Below, piece by piece: positions 37,829-63,204 of a stretch of DNA of 64,000 bases. Location: IMG/VR virus record IMGVR_UViG_3300001199_000002, positions 112,062 to 176,061 of that record. One strand, 5' to 3'. The position numbers and the translations under genes were made by a program. This stretch comes from a virus. Taxonomy: Duplodnaviria > Heunggongvirae > Uroviricota > Caudoviricetes. Every line of letters starts with the position of its first letter. The stretch's first letter is position 1. The notes beneath the pieces were generated by a model. That model searched no databases. It saw only the letters and a list, made by a program, of their open reading frames with translations, and was not told the origin of the DNA.

Positions 37829-38959
37829 TCACTCATGCTTTAGCAACCACTCGTTGCTGATTGCTTTGAAGCTAAGGCTTCCATCCAAAGCCTTGAATAC
37901 CAACCCTTCTCGCATGGTATTGCCATTCAACGCACTAACTCCATCGGCAAGAGTGAGAACACTATCAAGACTCATCGGAGTATCCTGATTCCAAACCATG
38001 ATAGGCACATGCTTTAGTCCGAGTTCGTGCGCAAGCTCGAAACGTTCGCGAGCACCTAGATACTTCTTTGCATCAATATCGTAGATGTCGAACACGTAGA
38101 ACTCTTGCTTGGCGAGATGGTATTTATTGCCCTGGATTGCAGGCCCGATGATCTCACCCTGAATGGCGATGTTACGTCCCAGTTCCCAAAGCTTATTGAC
38201 CAGATCGCTCTCTCTTAGAGTCTTGCTGTATACGTTATCATCGTCCTTCTGCATCTCCCAATTGCGGGATGCTACACCTACGACATCCTTCTTGAGACGT
38301 TCTACTTCTTCTGGCTTGCTGATATCATATCCCTGACCATCAAGCTTCTTGCCGAGACCCACAATCTCTTGTGTGATGAATGACCAGATGGTGCAGCTAG
38401 TTCCATCCAGCTTCTCTGTTACTTCAAAGTCCGAGATATTTCTGCCGTTCAACACATCTGTAATGTTCTGGATTCGTTCTTGATCTGTCTTTGGCACTAG
38501 GTGCGTTGGGAATGTTCCAGCCTGCTTACCACCAGTAGGAAGGGGTGGCTCGTACTTCTGAACACCTAGAACAGTAGTGAGTTCTTCGCCAGCACCTACA
38601 CGAGCGACTTCATCAGGAGTCAGACTCGTCGCCGGTATAAGAAGCCCTTGCGATAGAGTTCCTTTAAGACGGATGGTCTTGATGCGCGCGAACGGTGTGA
38701 CCTTGCCCTTAGCCAGGAATGCAAAGCGTGGATCAGTTGCGGGCAGCATCGAATCAATTTCGAAGTATACGCCCTCATCACCCACATTGAATTCGCCCTT
38801 CTTAACAACGCACTGCCAGCCATCGATACGGGCAAGTTCAATACGATCAGCCCCAGCGATAGGTGCCAGTTCGCGAACTACTCTCTTTGTTGCTAGTTGT
38901 CTCATAGTGCTAGAACTCCAAGCATTACTACTACCACGGCGATGAATCCAATTACGCAC
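37829..38959 (-). CDS. ATP-dependent RNA ligase (DraRnl/Rnl5-like: N-terminal extension + nucleotidyltransferase domain)
   Basis: Motif I KLDGTS near residue 183; motif IV EGLVFK; roughly 180-aa N-terminal domain precedes the NTase domain. Confidence 0.6.
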   Translation of the reverse strand: MRNWIHRRGSSNAWSSSTMRQLATKRVVRELAPIAGADRIELARIDGWQCVVKKGEFNVGDEGVYFEIDSMLPATDPRFAFLAKGKVTPFARIKTIRLKGTLSQGLLIPATSLTPDEVARVGAGEELTTVLGVQKYEPPLPTGGKQAGTFPTHLVPKTDQERIQNITDVLNGRNISDFEVTEKLDGTSCTIWSFITQEIVGLGKKLDGQGYDISKPEEVERLKKDVVGVASRNWEMQKDDDNVYSKTLRESDLVNKLWELGRNIAIQGEIIGPAIQGNKYHLAKQEFYVFDIYDIDAKKYLGARERFELAHELGLKHVPIMVWNQDTPMSLDSVLTLADGVSALNGNTMREGLVFKALDGSLSFKAISNEWLLKHE

Positions 38960-39285: not shown

Positions 39286-39689
39286 TACTTCTTCTCAGTG
39301 AGAACAATCTCTGGAACACGAATTCGAACAGTCTCAGTACCGTCAGGACTAGTAAGCTCTACCACATAGGCGCGCATTACAACCTCTTCCCTAGTCATGC
39401 TATTGATCCAAGTGGCCATCCCCTGGACTTCTACAATCTTAGCATCATATGGAATGTCCTCAACCACAACAGCATCTCCAACCTTAAACTTAGTTGGCTG
39501 TTCTACTGGAACTTCCACGGTTGGTTCAACTGGCTTTGTGACTGGCACAACTGGTTCTGAACATGCTACAAGTGTAGCTAACAGCAGCAAAGAAACATTC
39601 TTCATACACAACTCCTTTATTGTTCGAATCTTCGTGCCATCCTCAAAATGGCATCTCGCGGCACCCCATGAGTGTTGCGCTTTGCGCAC
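39285..39689 (-). CDS. Putative lipoprotein
   Basis: LLLLATLVACSEP lipobox. Confidence 0.4.
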   Translation of the reverse strand: MRKAQHSWGAARCHFEDGTKIRTIKELCMKNVSLLLLATLVACSEPVVPVTKPVEPTVEVPVEQPTKFKVGDAVVVEDIPYDAKIVEVQGMATWINSMTREEVVMRAYVVELTSPDGTETVRIRVPEIVLTEKK

Positions 39690-40066
39690 ATGTCGATGTA
39701 ACTATCATCAAAGATAGCTTCACCCGCCACTGGTGAGATCAGCACTTCTTGAACTTCATAGCCAGCAGCTTGCGCGAAGTCCTTGTATGGCTGCATCTCT
39801 TTGTGTGTGGTATTAGTATTGTCAACGTAGATGATCTCGACACCAGCGTTCATCATCTTCTGACACTTGACTTGGTTATTACGATGGTTCACACCAAGCT
39901 TCGTAGCATCGAAGACATACTGTCCATCAGCATTCAAGAATTGGTCATCGGTCGAACAGATCGCAATACTGCGCACGCCAGCTTGCAACTGTGCGGAGAT
40001 ATCCATCTGAACCCAAGTGGACTTGCCGCCACCAGGAAGACCACGCATGATGTAGAGCTTCTTCAT
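39617..40066 (-). CDS. Polynucleotide 5'-kinase (T4 Pnk kinase-domain-like, stand-alone)
   Basis: MKKLYIMRGLPGGGKSTW parallels T4 Pnk MKKIILTIGCPGSGKSTW; DNTN and RNTHGVPRDAILRM blocks also conserved. Confidence 0.65.
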   Translation of the reverse strand: MKKLYIMRGLPGGGKSTWVQMDISAQLQAGVRSIAICSTDDQFLNADGQYVFDATKLGVNHRNNQVKCQKMMNAGVEIIYVDNTNTTHKEMQPYKDFAQAAGYEVQEVLISPVAGEAIFDDSYIDMCAKRNTHGVPRDAILRMARRFEQ

Positions 40067-41311: not shown

Positions 41312-41601
41312 GCTGGCTTGGTATCTGGTCCGTCTAGGCTGTCTGGATCAATCCACACCACCTTGGTCTTTCCGTCATGTCCATGAATAGATCGAAGATT
41401 TCTTACGTTACGAAAGAATGTGATGCTTGTCTTATGTGAGAGCCATTGCATTGCGACAGCACCATCTTCGAACTCGACACCTTCCGCGACTCTACCAGTG
41501 CCACTCACACCACTCTCATCTTCGGTTCGTTGTAGATAAAATCTACGCATTGTCTTCCTCTTCTTTTGGATATCCACTCTCGATTTCAACACCAAGATCA
41601 T
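41308..41601 (-). CDS. Hypothetical protein
   Basis: ORF. Confidence 0.35.
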   Translation of the reverse strand: MILVLKSRVDIQKKRKTMRRFYLQRTEDESGVSGTGRVAEGVEFEDGAVAMQWLSHKTSITFFRNVRNLRSIHGHDGKTKVVWIDPDSLDGPDTKPA

Positions 41602-42331
41602 TTACCTCAAATACAACCGGAGGTCTAATAGTCTTGTAGTCTCTATCAAGAGACGATACGTTTGCATACAGCTTATTATCGCACAGCAGAAGTCTCTTAA
41701 ATCCACGAGCTTCATGAATATGGCCACCGATGGTGAGCTTCAACTTCTTCAATTGTTGAGTGCGCCTCAATAGATCGTTTGATCCAAGTCTTTCATCCGA
41801 GTTCGCATCGCCACCCTCGTCGGCACAGCCATATGCAGGACCGTGACAGATAAGGATATCGGTATCGTCGTCGATATGACTATAGATGTCAGCAAGTCTT
41901 GGGTTGTTGCTAAACGGAACTGTACCACCTTCGATACCATTAAATGCCCAGTCATGAAACCACGGAGTCCATGGCGTTCCATAGAACTTAATACCGTCGA
42001 TCACTACAGAGCGATTCTCTAGATATGTGATACGATCGAATGGATCGTTAGCGATGATGTCGCGCACAGAAGGATCATACTTCCTATGACCCTTGTCAAA
42101 GGTTAGTTCATGATTACCTGCGACAACAAGGATCCGCCTCGCAGGCTGTTCACGCAACCAGGAGGCGAAGTCAACAACCTCACCCCACTTGCCGGTATAA
42201 GTAAAGTCCCCTGCAACAACTAGAACATCACACTCTGGGATGACGAGTTGCTTGTGCTCGGTATGCGTATCGCTAATTGCTACGATCTTCATTTGGGCCA
42301 CACATAAGGTAGGGTTGCTGGTTCGATCCAA
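41543..42331 (-). CDS. Calcineurin-like metallophosphoesterase
   Basis: AISDTH, VVAGDF and AGNHE motifs. Confidence 0.75.
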   Translation of the reverse strand: MDRTSNPTLCVAQMKIVAISDTHTEHKQLVIPECDVLVVAGDFTYTGKWGEVVDFASWLREQPARRILVVAGNHELTFDKGHRKYDPSVRDIIANDPFDRITYLENRSVVIDGIKFYGTPWTPWFHDWAFNGIEGGTVPFSNNPRLADIYSHIDDDTDILICHGPAYGCADEGGDANSDERLGSNDLLRRTQQLKKLKLTIGGHIHEARGFKRLLLCDNKLYANVSSLDRDYKTIRPPVVFEVNDLGVEIESGYPKEEEDNA

Positions 42332-49081: not shown

Positions 49082-49424
49082 CTACCTCTTCCTTCTTAGC
49101 GCGCGACTTACGAGCACCACTCGCGCGATTCTGCATCTTTCGCGTGTCGGTCTTGAGACGCTTGAGCGTCGAATACCAGCACGGATCGTTCATCAGCACC
49201 CTGATAGTGCGCGCAATTGACTTCTTGTGCGCCGGAGTGTTGGCATAGAACTCAGCCTCCCACGCGCCAGCCGCCCACTTGCAGTAGGCAAACTCTTCGC
49301 GCTTCTTCTTACCTTCGCCGCGAACAACTTCCACTTCAATCTTACCGTCTTCGTTCTTAGTCATTTTAGTTTTCCTTGTTTCAGTAACCGCAGTCGTAAT
49401 CGTCTGAGTGAATCGTAAAGCCAA
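49074..49424 (-). CDS. Basic hypothetical protein
   Basis: ORF. Confidence 0.4.
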   Translation of the reverse strand: MALRFTQTITTAVTETRKTKMTKNEDGKIEVEVVRGEGKKKREEFAYCKWAAGAWEAEFYANTPAHKKSIARTIRVLMNDPCWYSTLKRLKTDTRKMQNRASGARKSRAKKEEVDV

Positions 49425-49836
49425 GCTTAGCGTCCGATCGGCTAATGCTCAACTCAAAGTTAGTATTGAACAGGATCGCAAAGTCATCATCAAGGGCTTC
49501 TACGATCTTATGTGCCTTCTCATAAGTCACATGCTCAGGATGAGCTTCATCGTTGATATCCTGTTCGTCCTTGGGCCTTTCTTCGTCTTCATCATCTTCG
49601 TCACAGTCCTCGAAGTTTCCCCACGGGTCATAATTGCCCACGGCTGCTTCTTGGTGGTGAGTGCATGGATCGCCGTCATTGAATCCTGGAGTCCAACCTC
49701 GCACACGGATCTGATCAAGACTTGGAATCTCCGCAAAGATAGCTGAAAGCGCTTCGTTAACGTTCTTCTGTGCTGCTTCCTTACGTCCAGCGCTAGCGGC
49801 AATTGCCTTGTTGTATAGTTCGTCGAGCTTATTCAT
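49381..49836 (-). CDS. Acidic hypothetical protein
   Basis: ORF with a run of D/E. Confidence 0.4.
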   Translation of the reverse strand: MNKLDELYNKAIAASAGRKEAAQKNVNEALSAIFAEIPSLDQIRVRGWTPGFNDGDPCTHHQEAAVGNYDPWGNFEDCDEDDEDEERPKDEQDINDEAHPEHVTYEKAHKIVEALDDDFAILFNTNFELSISRSDAKLGFTIHSDDYDCGY

Positions 49837-49855: not shown

Positions 49856-49967
49856 TGGTGCCCGGAGAGGGAATTGAACCCCCAACCCTCCGCATATCAG
49901 GCGGTGCCAGTTTTGAGGCTGGAGCAGATCATAAATCTACCGCTCTACCTAATTGAGCTATCCGGGC
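49856..49967 (-). tRNA. 112-nt tRNA-like gene; canonical acceptor, D- and T-arms; two anticodon-arm candidates (UAU, GAU) with a 40-nt variable region
   Basis: Acceptor GCCCGGA/UCCGGGC perfect; D-arm GCUC-AAUUAGGUA-GAGC; GUAGA-UUUAUGA-UCUGC; T-arm GGGGG-UUCAAUU-CCCUC; CCA. Confidence 0.45.
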
Positions 49968-49980
49968 TCATTGCACTACT

Positions 49981-50008
49981 AGTATACACCAGCAGTGCTA
50001 GTTGTCAA
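49981..50008 (-). promoter_or_regulatory. Sigma70-type promoter TTGACA-N16-TATACT upstream of the 112-nt tRNA-like gene
   Basis: Hexamers and spacing; -10 lies about 14 nt from the tRNA 5' end. Confidence 0.55.
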
Positions 50009-52059: not shown

Positions 52060-52133
52060 TGGTAGCCGTGGAAAGAATTGAACTTTCATCGAGCGCGTAT
52101 CAGACGCCTATTCTACCGTTGAACTACACGGCT
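52060..52133 (-). tRNA. tRNA-Ile(GAU)
   Basis: Anticodon arm GGCGU-CUGAUAC-GCGCU; T-arm GAAAG-UUCAAUU-CUUUC; CCA. Confidence 0.65.
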
Positions 52134-52229: not shown

Positions 52230-52315
52230 TGGAGCCGGTAGTAGGATTCGAACCTACGTGGGATTGCTCCGGTAGTTTACAAAACTACTCCTGTCGGCCA
52301 CTGAGGCATACCGGC
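52230..52315 (-). tRNA. 86-nt tRNA with anticodon UGU (Thr by anticodon) and a 14-nt hairpin variable arm (type-II body)
   Basis: Acceptor GCCGGUA/UACCGGC; anticodon arm GUAGU-UUUGUAA-ACUAC; variable CGGAGCAAUCCCAC; T-arm GUAGG-UUCGAAU-CCUAC; U73-CCA. Confidence 0.5.
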
Positions 52316-52815: not shown

Positions 52816-53390
52816 AATATTGGTCGCGCAGGATGAATTTGAATCACCACCTATAGGCTTAGGATGCCCGTGCTCTGTCTCCAGGACTTTGTTTAGGAGG
52901 TTTCTTTTAAGCTACTGCGCAGTAAATTTGATCATCTAGATAGGATTTGCACCTATAGTAGTTAGGTCTGCTCTAAGCTGCATCCTAAACCATGCTCGTT
53001 CTCGGCGTCTCTTATTCTTGCCTACACACGCGCGGTTCTGCTAGTTGAACTACTAGATGTAATGATTGGTGTACTAGACGGGATTCCCACCCGTATCTCG
53101 GCCTTGGTTGCCGGCATTGTTAGATAGTTATGCTACTAGCACAAATGGAGCTTCGGGTAGGAGTTTCACCTACATCAGTTCGCGAACATGGTAATTGAGT
53201 AGTTATACGACCGAAGCATGAATGGAGCGGGAAGTCGGTACTGCCCCGACTTATCTAGTTTGGAAGACTAGCACATTACTTTTATGCTATACCCGCATGT
53301 TGCCCAAGCTACCTAGCTTACTTGGACTGGCCACCTTAACTAGTTTCAGTGCAACTACTGGCACTTCAAGTGGTCTTCTCTATCAAGCAC
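52816..53390 (-). ncRNA. Candidate non-coding transcript downstream of the 53394-53422 promoter
   Basis: About 570 nt with no ORF over 35 codons on the minus strand; several stable hairpins (AAGUCGG/CCGACUU; GCUUCGG...CCGAAGC enclosing GUAGG-N7-CCUAC). Confidence 0.3.
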
Positions 53391-56841: not shown

Positions 56842-56945
56842 GTTAGTTGTCCTTGTTTTGAAACTGGCGGGGCTACCGAGTGCTGCCCTCGGGCCAACCG
56901 CTCGACAGGCGGTCGTACTACTGTTATACTATAACCCCAAATGAT

Positions 56946-57034: not shown

Positions 57035-57432
57035 GTAAGATGTTCTGATGCAAGTCTAGACTTCTTTGTTGCTTTGCAATCTGTTCTAAGTGTAACACCG
57101 GCTACATTAGAGAAAGCAGAGTCAGACAAAAAGTAGACAGCGTTGTTAACTGGATTGTATGCAGCAAGGATATCGTAGTCTCCTTGCTTTCTATTAACGT
57201 CATGTGATCCATTGCGATCTGCCCAAGAGGATCGCAACTTCACCACTAAGATGTTACCTTTTGGAGTCGTGTACCTTACCTGCACACGATAGCAAACTCC
57301 ATTCATTTCTGCGATGATGTCATACTTAGTATGTTCAGACAAAGGCATTGCCACACGCCATCCTTGGATGGTAAGTGCTGCAATAGTAGCAGCTACACCA
57401 ATATCTCCCTTATCTTTCTTAGTATGAACCAT
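57001..57432 (-). CDS. Hypothetical protein, possible PD-(D/E)XK-fold nuclease
   Basis: YDIIAE...YRVQVR resembles a D..E.K-type core; 3' end overlaps a tRNA-like element. Confidence 0.35.
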   Translation of the reverse strand: MVHTKKDKGDIGVAATIAALTIQGWRVAMPLSEHTKYDIIAEMNGVCYRVQVRYTTPKGNILVVKLRSSWADRNGSHDVNRKQGDYDILAAYNPVNNAVYFLSDSAFSNVAGVTLRTDCKATKKSRLASEHLTCPVPGTSLLN

Positions 57433-57478
57433 GACCCTCGATCATCGTGGTCTGATCAAGGCGCTGCCAGCCTAACAC

Positions 57479-57691
57479 CTATTTAGACTCGCTGGCACGA
57501 GTGCGACCATCGCGAGGCTTCTTCAATGCCTCAAGGACTCTCCTCTTCCCCAACTCTACATCACCATCACCGAACATAGCGAACAAATCGGCGAAAAACT
57601 CATTGCTCTCTTTCTCACACATCTCACACTCATACTCCCAAAGGAGTCCGTGTTCGCAGCGTTCGGTTTCTAGTTCGTCGTCGTCGCTCAT
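57479..57691 (-). CDS. Small Cys-rich protein
   Basis: CEHG...CEMC; start set at the ATG (ORF track began at TTG 57697). Confidence 0.35.
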   Translation of the reverse strand: MSDDDELETERCEHGLLWEYECEMCEKESNEFFADLFAMFGDGDVELGKRRVLEALKKPRDGRTRASESK

Positions 57692-59741: not shown

Positions 59742-59827
59742 TTTATCATGACTCCGTAGCAGGATTTGAACCTGCGATGACGCTTACGCGATACAGATTT
59801 GCAGTCTGTTGCCTTCGACCACTCGAC
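59742..59827 (-). tRNA. 86-nt type-II tRNA (Tyr-like body) with anticodon GCA (Cys by anticodon); CCA not encoded
   Basis: Acceptor CUCCGUA/UACGGAG; anticodon arm ACAGA-CUGCAAA-UCUGU; variable AUCGCGUAAGCGUCAUC (CGC-GUAA-GCG hairpin); T-arm GCAGG-UUCAAAU-CCUGC. Confidence 0.5.
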
Positions 59828-59832
59828 CATAC

Positions 59833-59922
59833 GGAGATAATTGGCGGAAGACACAGGAGTCGAACCTGTTTGGCCCTTTCGAACCAGCCTACGATTAGCA
59901 ATCGCGCACCTTACCACTTCGG
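59833..59922 (-). tRNA. tRNA-Ser(GCU), type II (90 nt)
   Basis: Acceptor GGAAGAC/GUCUUCC; anticodon loop UUGCUAA; T-arm ACAGG-UUCGACU-CCUGU; G73-CCA. Confidence 0.55.
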
Positions 59923-62191: not shown

Positions 62192-62281
62192 TGGTCTGGA
62201 TGGTAGGATTTGAACCTACGAGATCCCTTCGGGCCTCCTGTCTCCAAAACAGGCGCTCTGACCAAGCTGAGCTACATCCAG
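62192..62281 (-). tRNA. 90-nt tRNA with anticodon UGG (Pro by anticodon) and a 17-nt hairpin variable arm (type-II body)
   Basis: All stems perfect: CUGGAUG/CAUCCAG, GCUC/GAGC, CCUGU-UUUGGAG-ACAGG, variable AGGCCCGAAGGGAUCUC, GUAGG-UUCAAAU-CCUAC; A73-CCA. Confidence 0.55.
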
Positions 62282-62628: not shown

Positions 62629-63204
62629 CTAGAGATCATGATGATCTACGATTCCACCCTGCTCTGTAATCGCTATTACTTCGCGCAGACTAAGGGGTTG
62701 TAGATTGGAATACTCACCGTCTACACCGACATCTAGACGCTTTGTACCTCTATTTAGATGGTCGTTACTGCCATGGGCATGACCGTGGACATTAATGCTG
62801 CCACGAGCCGACCCATCCCATGTAAGGAAAGGGAAATGCATCATGACAAACTCATACGTCTTGCCGTCAAGCGATAGATTTTCTTTGTGGTATTGCTTAA
62901 TCCACTCAAACTTGCCTTTGTTCTGTAGAGCATCGACCTTACGCAGCCACTTGTCGTGATTACCCTTTACGAGTCTAATGGTGCCGTTGAGTTGCGCCAG
63001 GATCTGGTCAATCAACTCTACTCTAGTTGTCAGAGTGAAGTCACCTAGATGATAAACGATATCGTTCTTGCCGATCTTGGCATTCCAGCCAGCGATTAGT
63101 CCGCAGTTCATATCCTCGATTGTTGCCCACTTCCGTCCTGGGCAATACTCAAGGATATTGCGATGATAGAAGTGCGAATCACTAGTGAAAAAAATGTTAC
63201 TCAT
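62629..63204 (-). CDS. Calcineurin-like metallophosphoesterase
   Basis: SDSHFYH, LGDF and GNHD motifs. Confidence 0.7.
   Translation of the reverse strand: MSNIFFTSDSHFYHRNILEYCPGRKWATIEDMNCGLIAGWNAKIGKNDIVYHLGDFTLTTRVELIDQILAQLNGTIRLVKGNHDKWLRKVDALQNKGKFEWIKQYHKENLSLDGKTYEFVMMHFPFLTWDGSARGSINVHGHAHGSNDHLNRGTKRLDVGVDGEYSNLQPLSLREVIAITEQGGIVDHHDL

Follow-up and report, generated by a model that had tools for sequence, protein, structure and literature searches.

A 112-nt transfer RNA (tRNA) gene with two anticodon-type arms was found on the minus strand, from 49967 (5' terminus of the RNA) to 49856 (3' terminus), of a 64,000-nt stretch of viral DNA (Caudoviricetes; IMG/VR record IMGVR_UViG_3300001199_000002, positions 112,062 to 176,061), which is referred to below, at its full length, as the window. 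Judged from its sequence and those of its relatives, this RNA is a real, conserved and structurally new form of tRNA-Ile, in which a single set of acceptor stem, D arm and T arm is combined with a UAU anticodon arm (arm 1), a spacer hairpin and a GAU anticodon-like arm (arm 2). It is tentatively regarded here as what may quite possibly be a functional elongator tRNA-Ile, in which the UAU arm would decode AUA and the GAU arm would serve as a built-in recognition module for isoleucyl-tRNA synthetase (IleRS).

Structure and conservation of the two-arm tRNA

The RNA reads, from 5' to 3', GCCCGGA UA GCUC AAUUAGGUA GAGC G GUAGA UUUAUGA UCUGC U CCAG CCUCAAAA CUGG in its first half and CA CCGC CUGAUAU GCGG A GGGUU GGGGG UUCAAUU CCCUC UCCGGGC A CCA in its second half, and its parts were assigned as follows.

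49856..49967, minus strand: whole two-anticodon-arm tRNA-Ile, with A73 (49859) and the encoded CCA (49858-49856); 57 bits with RF00005 and 108 bits with the family model R1
49961..49967, minus strand: 5' strand of the acceptor stem, GCCCGGA, with its partner UCCGGGC at 49860-49866; 7/7 Watson-Crick pairs
49942..49958, minus strand: D arm GCUC-AAUUAGGUA-GAGC, with U12-A23, G18 G19 and A15, which pairs with U48
49924..49940, minus strand: arm 1, GUAGA-UUUAUGA-UCUGC, with the anticodon UAU at 49933-49931 and G37
49907..49922, minus strand: spacer hairpin CCAG-CCUCAAAA-CUGG
49890..49904, minus strand: arm 2, CCGC-CUGAUAU-GCGG, with the anticodon-like GAU at 49898-49896, A37 and the equivalent of C29-G41
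49884..49888, minus strand: canonical 5-nt variable loop GGGUU, positions 44-48
49867..49883, minus strand: T arm GGGGG-UUCAAUU-CCCUC

The initial annotation of this gene had described a perfect 7-bp acceptor stem with an encoded CCA, a canonical D arm, anticodon arm (UUUAUGA loop, UAU anticodon) and T arm, and a 40-nt stretch forming the hairpins CCAG-N8-CUGG and CCGC-CUGAUAU-GCGG, and all of these were borne out by the minus-strand sequence, in which the gap from the UAU arm to the T stem is exactly 40 nt. It had also called the insert too long for any known variable arm and too short for a group I intron, in agreement with the two hairpins found in the 40 nt and with the lack of any Rfam intron match, and its suggestion of a fused tRNA failed in the sense of two joined tRNAs, since only one acceptor, D and T set is present. 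The UAU arm stands in the canonical register when counted from the 5' side (D stem, nucleotide 26, 5-bp stem), and the GAU arm does so when counted from the 3' side (stem, 5-nt variable loop GGGUU, T stem). As both cloverleaf registers are valid and isoleucine is specified by both anticodons (UAU and GAU), the element is more than a tRNA with a random insert.

The RNA was aligned over the whole Rfam tRNA model RF00005 (positions 1-71, the full length) and scored 57 bits, where the gathering score is 29 (E = 7e-12). About 36 extra nt were placed as an insertion in the variable region, and the relatives of the RNA scored 54-61 bits with the same model; no other Rfam family came close for the window RNA, even at E = 10. 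The features of a tRNA were present, namely the 7-bp acceptor stem, G18 G19, the T loop UUCRAnU, the 15-48 pair and the discriminator with CCA, and in place of a single anticodon stem-loop there are two anticodon-type stem-loops and a spacer hairpin. The check with ARAGORN that had been proposed gave a divided answer: the element was not called at default settings, and with introns allowed the isotypes given to six members did not agree (Leu, Asp, Tyr, Ile, Ile and Stop), for which reason the family may have been overlooked. The helices were recovered by single-sequence folding of the window RNA with a modest z-score (-2.2), and the layout pattern gave 0 matches in 100 shuffles of the window.

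For the detection of relatives, the layout pattern, which required TTAT and CTGATA, was validated on the window and on the syntenic phage locus L005 and then run over three collections. Ten distinct sequences were found to share six helices (acceptor, D, UAU arm, spacer hairpin, GAU arm and T), their sources being a second phage, Nevskia and Lysobacteraceae genomes, and megabase-scale bacterial contigs. The length of the RNA is 109 nt in L161, L165, L166, L213 (a 1.59-Mb contig of a Nevskia metagenome-assembled genome) and L225 (a Lysobacteraceae metagenome-assembled genome), 114 nt in L168, L169 and L181, and 105 nt in L163. L281, on a 1.11-Mb contig, was found by synteny through a search with neighbouring genes, along with L285-L287. 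The phage and plasmid reference collections held nothing similar, the bacterial variant giving only half-length matches to ordinary tRNAs, and no family member was found among the IMG/VR viral contigs, even with arm 1 left free; only a tRNA-Ile(GAU) type with an insert in the anticodon stem was recovered there.

In the Nevskia/Lysobacteraceae group the tRNA lies on a common 4.4-kb segment with RES/HEPN and KfrA genes, and in the QFCS group it lies at a conserved chromosomal site beside a metallophosphoesterase cassette, where the tRNA is 83-90% conserved and the flanks are 66-70% conserved. The metallophosphoesterase flanking the L181-type copy is identical to a protein that NCBI lists under Hydrocarboniphaga effusa, so that a cultured Nevskiales species may carry a two-arm tRNA gene.

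Covariation was tested on alignment A2, which holds the 10 distinct sequences under the six-helix structure. Standard pairs were found in 96.1% of 279 pair cells, and changes on both sides in 15 of the 28 pairs, with from one (D stem) to four such pairs per helix; the observed values were reached by 0 of 500 column shuffles, and pairing fell to 28-46% when the partners were slid by 1-3 columns. In the acceptor stem 98.6% of cells were paired with both-side changes in 4 of 7 pairs, in the T arm 100% with both-side changes in 3 of 5 pairs, and in the spacer 100% with both-side changes in all 3 outer pairs. The spacer forms a hairpin of 3 to 7 bp in every member from unrelated sequences, with the loops GCAA, UAGC, ACAC and CCUCAAAA. 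The tertiary 15-48 pair also covaries (G15-C48 in 7 members, A15-U48 in 3), which indicates that the core is a real tRNA core, and G18 G19 and the T loop are canonical across the members. CCA is encoded in 8 of the 10, the others being L166 (CUA) and L163 (none).

When the members were folded singly by minimum free energy, the six-hairpin layout was obtained in nearly all of them with small shifts in stem length or register; in L163 the UAU and GAU arms were folded in another register. With covariance model R1 the members scored 95-126 bits and all other tRNAs compared scored at most 62 bits, where nine sequences were used to build R1 and therefore match it partly by construction; L281, which was outside the training set, scored 113.6 bits. 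The lineages that carry the layout are only 59-73% identical, and the conservation in homologs that had been asked for as a check is present as a covarying two-anticodon-arm layout in phage and bacterial sequences. Two further pairings were tried and dropped, namely that of the 5' strands of arm 1 and arm 2 (GCGG/CCGC), which is possible in the bacterial members and cannot be formed by the window RNA and L005, and a closing pair between G27 of arm 1 and C43 of arm 2, which is possible in 7 of 10 members and is not general.

Syntenic loci of related phages were fetched through homologs of the open reading frame (ORF) downstream of the tRNA, and the slot was taken as the interval between an SPFH gene and this ORF. 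An ordinary 76-nt tRNA-Ile(UAU) occupies the slot in L002 (ORF 83% identical) behind the same TTGACA-N16-TATACT promoter as in the window, and likewise in L007 with the same promoter hexamers; the slot is without a tRNA in L003 and L004. In L005 and L006 (ORF 49% identical) it holds a 109-nt tRNA of the same double layout in which every stem differs from the window (in L005, arm 1 GCGGA-CUUAUAC-CCCGC, spacer CUGUC-GCAA-GACAG and arm 2 CCAU-CUGAUAC-AUGG, followed by AGAUU). Since L005 was found by synteny, its retention of both UAU and GAU is not an artefact of the search. The loci of the distant homologs P0009, P0010, P0013 and P0014, obtained through neighbouring proteins, are without the slot, and the contig of P0003 has a 180-nt gap at its position.

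CCGU-CUUAUAU-GCGG, the only anticodon arm in the tRNA of L002, is similar to arm 2 of the window but has U in place of G34. The element in the window stands closer to the bacterial forms (70-73% identity) than to L005 (61%), and it shares the acceptor strand GCCCGGA with L168 and the CCGC/GCGG arm 2 with the bacterial forms. L005, in turn, has in common with the plain tRNAs of L002 and L007 an odd C1-A72 mismatch. From these comparisons the slot has evidently swapped plain and double forms more than once, and transfer between phages and Nevskiales-type bacteria is likely. The mismatch lies at the top of the acceptor stem in the tRNA-Ile(UAU) genes of these phages, plain and double (L002:9906-9981, L005:1607-1715 and L007:120-195), and the window has G1-C72 there; a C1-A72 mismatch is characteristic of the bacterial initiator tRNA.

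Isoleucine identity and the roles of the two arms

The bacterial identity set for isoleucine comprises A73, C4-G69, U12-A23, C29-G41, G34 or lysidine, A35, U36, A37, A38 and bases of the D loop (PMC9976931). In the window RNA this set is represented by A73, C4-G69 and U12-A23 in the body and by C29-G41, G34, A35, U36 and A37 in arm 2; at position 38, arm 2 of the window has U and that of the bacterial members has A. Across the family A73 was found in 9/10 members, and C4-G69 and U12-A23 in 10/10 each. C29-G41 was found in arm 2 of 10/10 and in arm 1 of 0/10, where the 29-41 pair is G-C in 9 and A-U in 1. The loop of arm 1 follows Y32-U33-UAU-R37 in all ten. The loop of arm 2 is CUGAUAN in 9 members and UAGAUAA in L281, in which G34 A35 U36 A37 A38 are intact and C32 and U33 are changed, with UAU and U33 kept in arm 1. 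Nearly all decoding loops have U33 as their U-turn base, and the L281 loop, with G34-A38 kept and U33 lost, fits recognition by a synthetase and not decoding. The stem of arm 2 has 4 bp, and no member has a Watson-Crick pair at the flanking 27-43 position.

These data also bear on the view that both arms enter the A site, with GAU reading AUU/AUC and UAU reading AUA. Both loops are anticodon-like in 9/10 members (7 nt, U33, purine at 37), one charging identity would suffice for two isoleucine anticodons, and the junction could in principle present either arm. However, the codons of GAU are already read in the same phage by an ordinary tRNA-Ile(GAU) (52060-52133), so that decoding by a second GAU would be redundant, and bacterial tRNA-Ile(GAU) genes normally lie within ribosomal RNA operons. 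The second loop of L281, a member found by synteny, has lost C32 as well as the U-turn base, and the short, unextended stem of arm 2 also speaks against its use on the ribosome. Decoding by both arms is therefore considered unlikely, and the evidence favours decoding by the UAU arm alone.

Decoding of AUA by the UAU arm is consistent with the use of this codon in the window phage, where 84 of 947 isoleucine codons (8.9%) are AUA; in the high-GC neighbourhoods of the bacterial copies AUA is nearly absent, with 0-3 per gene. The slot of the window element is that of an AUA decoder, as it holds ordinary tRNA-Ile(UAU) genes under the same promoter in L002 and L007. A tRNA with a plain UAU anticodon is a poor substrate for bacterial-type IleRS: the UAU version of tRNA-Ile2 reached with Escherichia coli IleRS 1.1% of the kcat/Km of native tRNA-Ile2, and in Mycoplasma mobile a change of IleRS (Arg865) was needed to use UAU (PMC3575796). 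Taken together, the placement of the identity elements, the L281 loop, the redundancy of GAU, the charging defect of UAU and the AUA usage point to the UAU arm as the probable decoder of AUA and to the GAU arm as a putative cis-acting handle for IleRS.

In the structure proposed, the single anticodon stem below the D stem would be replaced by a junction with three hairpins, in which the UAU arm is joined to the D stem through nucleotide 26, a spacer of variable length follows, and the usual 5-nt variable loop connects the GAU arm with the T stem. The GAU arm would be recognised by IleRS, by which the tRNA would be charged with isoleucine, and the UAU arm would read AUA on the ribosome, so that an AUA decoder would be obtained without the need for lysidine (TilS) and the poor charging of plain UAU by a bacterial-type IleRS would be avoided. 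Together with the D stem, these three hairpins may form a four-helix junction with two stacking isomers, of which the one with arm 2 under the D stem would be ready for charging and the one with arm 1 under the D stem would be ready for decoding, with the spacer stacked on the idle arm; such a junction would explain the constancy of the spacer helix. The full proposal, in which the anticodons read by the synthetase and by the ribosome lie on separate stem-loops, junction isomers switch between them, and AUA is decoded without TilS/lysidine or a change of IleRS in Gammaproteobacteria-type hosts and phages, is put forward with added caution as a possible one.

Several points weigh against the division of labour between a decoding UAU arm and a charging GAU arm. 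Plain tRNA-Ile(UAU) is used by the sister phages L002 and L007, and Bacillus subtilis is reported to be viable on a UAU tRNA-Ile (PMC3919564), so that a charging module is not always required. As TTAT and CTGATA were demanded by the search pattern, the conservation of the anticodons in the bacterial members except L281 is partly a matter of ascertainment, and only L005 and L281 are unbiased in this respect; the loss of U33 from arm 2 was seen in one sequence only, L281. In complexes with class I synthetases, to which IleRS belongs, the variable region of the tRNA points away from the enzyme, so that arm 2 would have to undergo the proposed rearrangement before it could contact the anticodon-binding domain. 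Arm 1 of the window has G37, where A37 (t6A) is usual in ANN-reading tRNAs, and an A31-C39 mismatch is present in arm 1 of L005 and L163. The ribosome, moreover, would need to accommodate an appendage of 35-40 nt with two hairpins.

The same layout can be read as an intron-like insert, whereby arm 1 with the spacer, or the spacer with arm 2, would be excised and the ends rejoined to a 76-nt tRNA-Ile (GAU or UAU, respectively). If one or the other block is taken out, what is left of each member is a canonical cloverleaf, and the phage has an RNA ligase (37829-38959), an AAA_33 kinase and metallophosphoesterases; other insert-bearing tRNAs occur in related phages (Ile(GAU) with 40-51 nt; Thr, Cys and Pro with extra hairpins), and archaeal tRNA-Ile genes with non-canonical introns were found by the same scans. 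Against excision stand the linkers of 1-2 nt and the lack of any bulge-helix-bulge motif, with two 3-nt bulges on either side of a 4-bp helix at the exon-intron boundaries, in the members or their folds, as judged by eye, by which an intron of this type was rejected. A group I intron, which would have a P1-P9 core, a length of at least some 200 nt and usually a place in the anticodon loop, was likewise rejected, the insert of 35-36 nt being far below that size and no intron family being matched at E = 10. No conserved boundary sequence was seen in the members, both loops are kept in L005 and L281, where one would not expect a canonical anticodon loop and C29-G41 to persist in a block that is thrown away, and the bacterial carriers would require a splicing endonuclease, a type of enzyme not known from bacteria. 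Excision is on these grounds held to be improbable.

A role outside translation was also weighed, in which the RNA would be a tRNA mimic acting as a decoy or sponge for anticodon nucleases or tRNA-targeting defences, with the two stem-loops as bait, or as a sensor or regulator. The bacterial copies adjoin HEPN_Apea, HEPN/RES, PIN-TPR-GreABC and mobile-element genes, and the RNA-repair gene set of the phage implies pressure from tRNA-cleaving defences. Island genes beside tRNA genes are nevertheless expected anyway, as tRNA genes are common integration sites; a body competent for charging is kept (A73 in 9/10, CCA in 8/10, C4-G69, U12-A23, the T loop and 15-48), the ordinary tRNA-Ile(UAU) slot of the sister phages is occupied, and no nuclease is known to target tRNA-Ile. 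A tRNA-like regulatory RNA had been among the initial suggestions, and no evidence was found to prefer a regulator over a chargeable tRNA, so that little credence is given to a role of this kind.

A functionless product of partial duplication or illegitimate recombination of two tRNA-Ile genes, decaying or neutral, is very improbable: the likeness of arm 2 of the window to the single arm of L002 makes an origin by insertion or recombination possible and G37 in arm 1 is unusual, but the layout persists at 59-73% identity with compensatory changes in all six helices, the spacer varies in length and is always a hairpin, and the tRNA of the QFCS group is better conserved than its flanks.

Genomic setting and other unusual RNAs

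Two further features belong to the same transcription unit as proposed below.

49981..50008, minus strand: sigma-70-type promoter, TTGACA (50008-50003), 16-nt spacer and TATACT (49986-49981); 11/12 consensus positions
49381..49836, minus strand: ORF of 151 aa, no function assigned, starting 19 nt past the CCA, with the ribosome-binding site AAGGAAA

The promoter noticed at the outset directly upstream of the tRNA was confirmed and is the sole promoter-like site in the 1 kb scanned. Transcription is predicted to start near 49974 and to leave a 5' leader of about 7 nt, which would be trimmed by RNase P. No terminator was found between the CCA of the tRNA and the 151-aa ORF, so that the two are probably co-transcribed from the tRNA's own promoter, and the order of tRNA and then ORF is common to L002, L005 and L007.

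The window belongs to a large, tRNA-rich phage, in which 21 tRNAs were called by ARAGORN and three more by Rfam, all on the minus strand. No DNA match for the region was found among 50,697 deposited phage records, and no close relative. The proteins of the phage include NAMPT, RNase T, an SPFH protein and a NUDIX protein with a weak, sub-threshold cytidylyltransferase-like match. An RNA ligase with a PHA02142 OB domain and an RNA_ligase domain (37829-38959, minus strand), an AAA_33 kinase-like protein and two metallophosphoesterases lie near the tRNA array, likewise on the minus strand, with the coordinates of the RNA repair-type genes being 37829-38959, 39617-40066, 41543-42331 and 62629-63204 (minus strand); judged by these domain matches, the set looks like the Pnkp/Rnl-type RNA repair set of T4.

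The bacterial two-arm copies always adjoin a Metallophos-unknown-Metallophos cassette (L285:3834-8493, L281:6001-8935, L168:2923-10158 and L213:4001-6553), sometimes with a HAD hydrolase in addition. The defence and mobile genes that flank them are HEPN_Apea, PIN-TPR-GreABC, HEPN/RES, KfrA, MobA/MobL and IS3.

Other unusual RNAs were noticed in the same phages. A Pistol ribozyme (RF02679) lies within the tRNA array, at 57430-57502 (minus strand) in the window and at L002:4415-4481 (plus strand), with 51.5 and 56.6 bits, respectively; its 3' end adjoins the ATG (57432) of a PD-(D/E)XK endonuclease ORF in the window, the L002 copy adjoins the 5' end of tRNA-Arg(UCU), and self-cleavage may be a source of mRNA or tRNA 5' ends. 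Extra variable-region hairpins are carried by tRNA-Thr (52230-52315, 86 nt, GGA-GCAA-UCC), tRNA-Cys (59750-59836, 87 nt, CGC-GUAA-GCG) and tRNA-Pro (62192-62281, 90 nt, CCC-GAA-GGG), all on the minus strand; short variable loops are normal for these isotypes, and the versions of the relative L003 are normal, with 73-76 nt. Two tRNAs at 53226-53296 and 56868-56938 (minus strand; anticodons UCC for Gly and GUC for Asp, respectively) scored 46 bits each in Rfam and were not called by ARAGORN, and their T loops are without the usual UUC (..GGGGCAGUACCGAC.. and ..GAGGGCAGCACUCGG.., respectively).

A 130-nt tRNA-like RNA at L001:1110-1239 (plus strand, IMGVR_UViG_3300006899_000032) is normal in its acceptor stem, D arm and T arm and ends in an encoded CCA, and 68 nt without a recognisable anticodon loop replace its anticodon arm; it shares the 9-mer AAAACUGGC with the two-arm tRNA of the window and was rejected as a two-arm member, as it scored 37 bits with R1 and has no anticodon-type loops. 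A second odd type of phage tRNA-Ile(GAU) was found at L155:2155-2270, L162, L170:2855-2969, L191 and L277:2591-2717, with an insert of 40-51 nt in the 5' strand of the anticodon stem (GCG, then UAC and the insert, then GA-CUGAUAA-UCCGC), conserved boundaries and GNRA hairpins within; this insert may represent a small intron or else a branched stem. At L008:3802-3938 (plus strand), among the tRNAs of a 167-kb phage-like contig, a 137-nt match to the transfer-messenger RNA (tmRNA) model RF00023 was found with 49.9 bits against 47, far below the normal length of a tmRNA.

Relation to known tRNAs and significance

Natural tRNAs with two anticodon arms were nowhere described in the literature searched (full text). 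In function, the nearest analogies are the tRNA-Ile(UAU) of M. mobile, for which the same problem is solved in the enzyme, and the class II and nev-tRNAs, whose identity is set by an extra arm. The variable arm of class II tRNAs (Leu, Ser, bacterial Tyr and Sec) is one hairpin, some 10-24 nt long. These tRNAs also have an extra helix between the anticodon and T stems in a canonical cloverleaf with a 15-48 pair, and their extra arm can serve as an identity element for the synthetase (PMC9976931); the two-arm family differs from them by 35-40 nt with two hairpins, of which one is an anticodon-arm copy with GAU, A37 and C29-G41, and assignment to class II was rejected for the two hairpins over 40 nt and the isoleucine anticodons. 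In the nematode nev-tRNAs (variable arm, anticodon UAU or CCC; PMC3333845, PMC4300185) an extra arm likewise sets the charging identity and one major isotype has UAU, but these are tRNA-Leu-like class II tRNAs that carry the 'wrong' amino acid, whereas here isoleucine is the amino acid of both anticodons and a copy of an anticodon arm makes up the extra element. The allo-tRNAs and other non-canonical cloverleaves of metagenomic origin (reviewed in PMC7609411) are alike in having an unusual architecture in bacteria and phages and in being mis-called by standard tools; the acceptor/T stems of allo-tRNAs are 8/4 or 9/3 and their long variable arm is a single one, in contrast to 7/5 and two anticodon arms here, and allo-tRNAs were ruled out by the 7/5 configuration of all members. 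A tmRNA, in which a tRNA-like domain is combined with a tag ORF or pseudoknots, was excluded as neither Rfam nor ARAGORN made such a call.

The archaeal tRNAs with bulge-helix-bulge introns (PMC4090602), of which tRNA-Ile(GAU) genes were found by the same scans, resemble the family in inserts of 20-50 nt at unusual positions and in genes of 105-120 nt, and differ from it in bulge-helix-bulge boundaries, GGGCCCG... bodies, no encoded CCA and an insert without an anticodon loop. The tRNA-Ile(UAU) of M. mobile and of other bacteria that are without TilS (PMC3575796) and the UAU suppressor of B. subtilis (PMC3919564) are alike in that UAU reads AUA without lysidine and the same charging problem is faced; these are ordinary tRNAs of 76 nt, and M. 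mobile has an altered IleRS (Arg865) where a second, GAU-bearing arm is proposed here.

In most tRNAs, tRNA-Ile included, the anticodon is both the reader of the codon and a major identity mark for the synthetase, and owing to this coupling lysidine is needed for the decoding of AUA in bacteria and plain UAU tRNAs are poorly charged by an E. coli-type IleRS. If the proposed separation of the two functions is true, the two-arm tRNA would be a third natural solution to the decoding of AUA, beside modification to lysidine or agmatidine and alteration of IleRS, and the cloverleaf would be shown to tolerate a branched anticodon domain. It would also offer a scaffold for codon reassignment, in which arm 1 is changed and charging is kept, to give orthogonal decoders. 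Since such genes are missed or mis-typed by ARAGORN, there may be errors in the tRNA sets listed for some phages and Nevskiales-type genomes. H. effusa is a cultured bacterium, and the model may thus be directly testable there.

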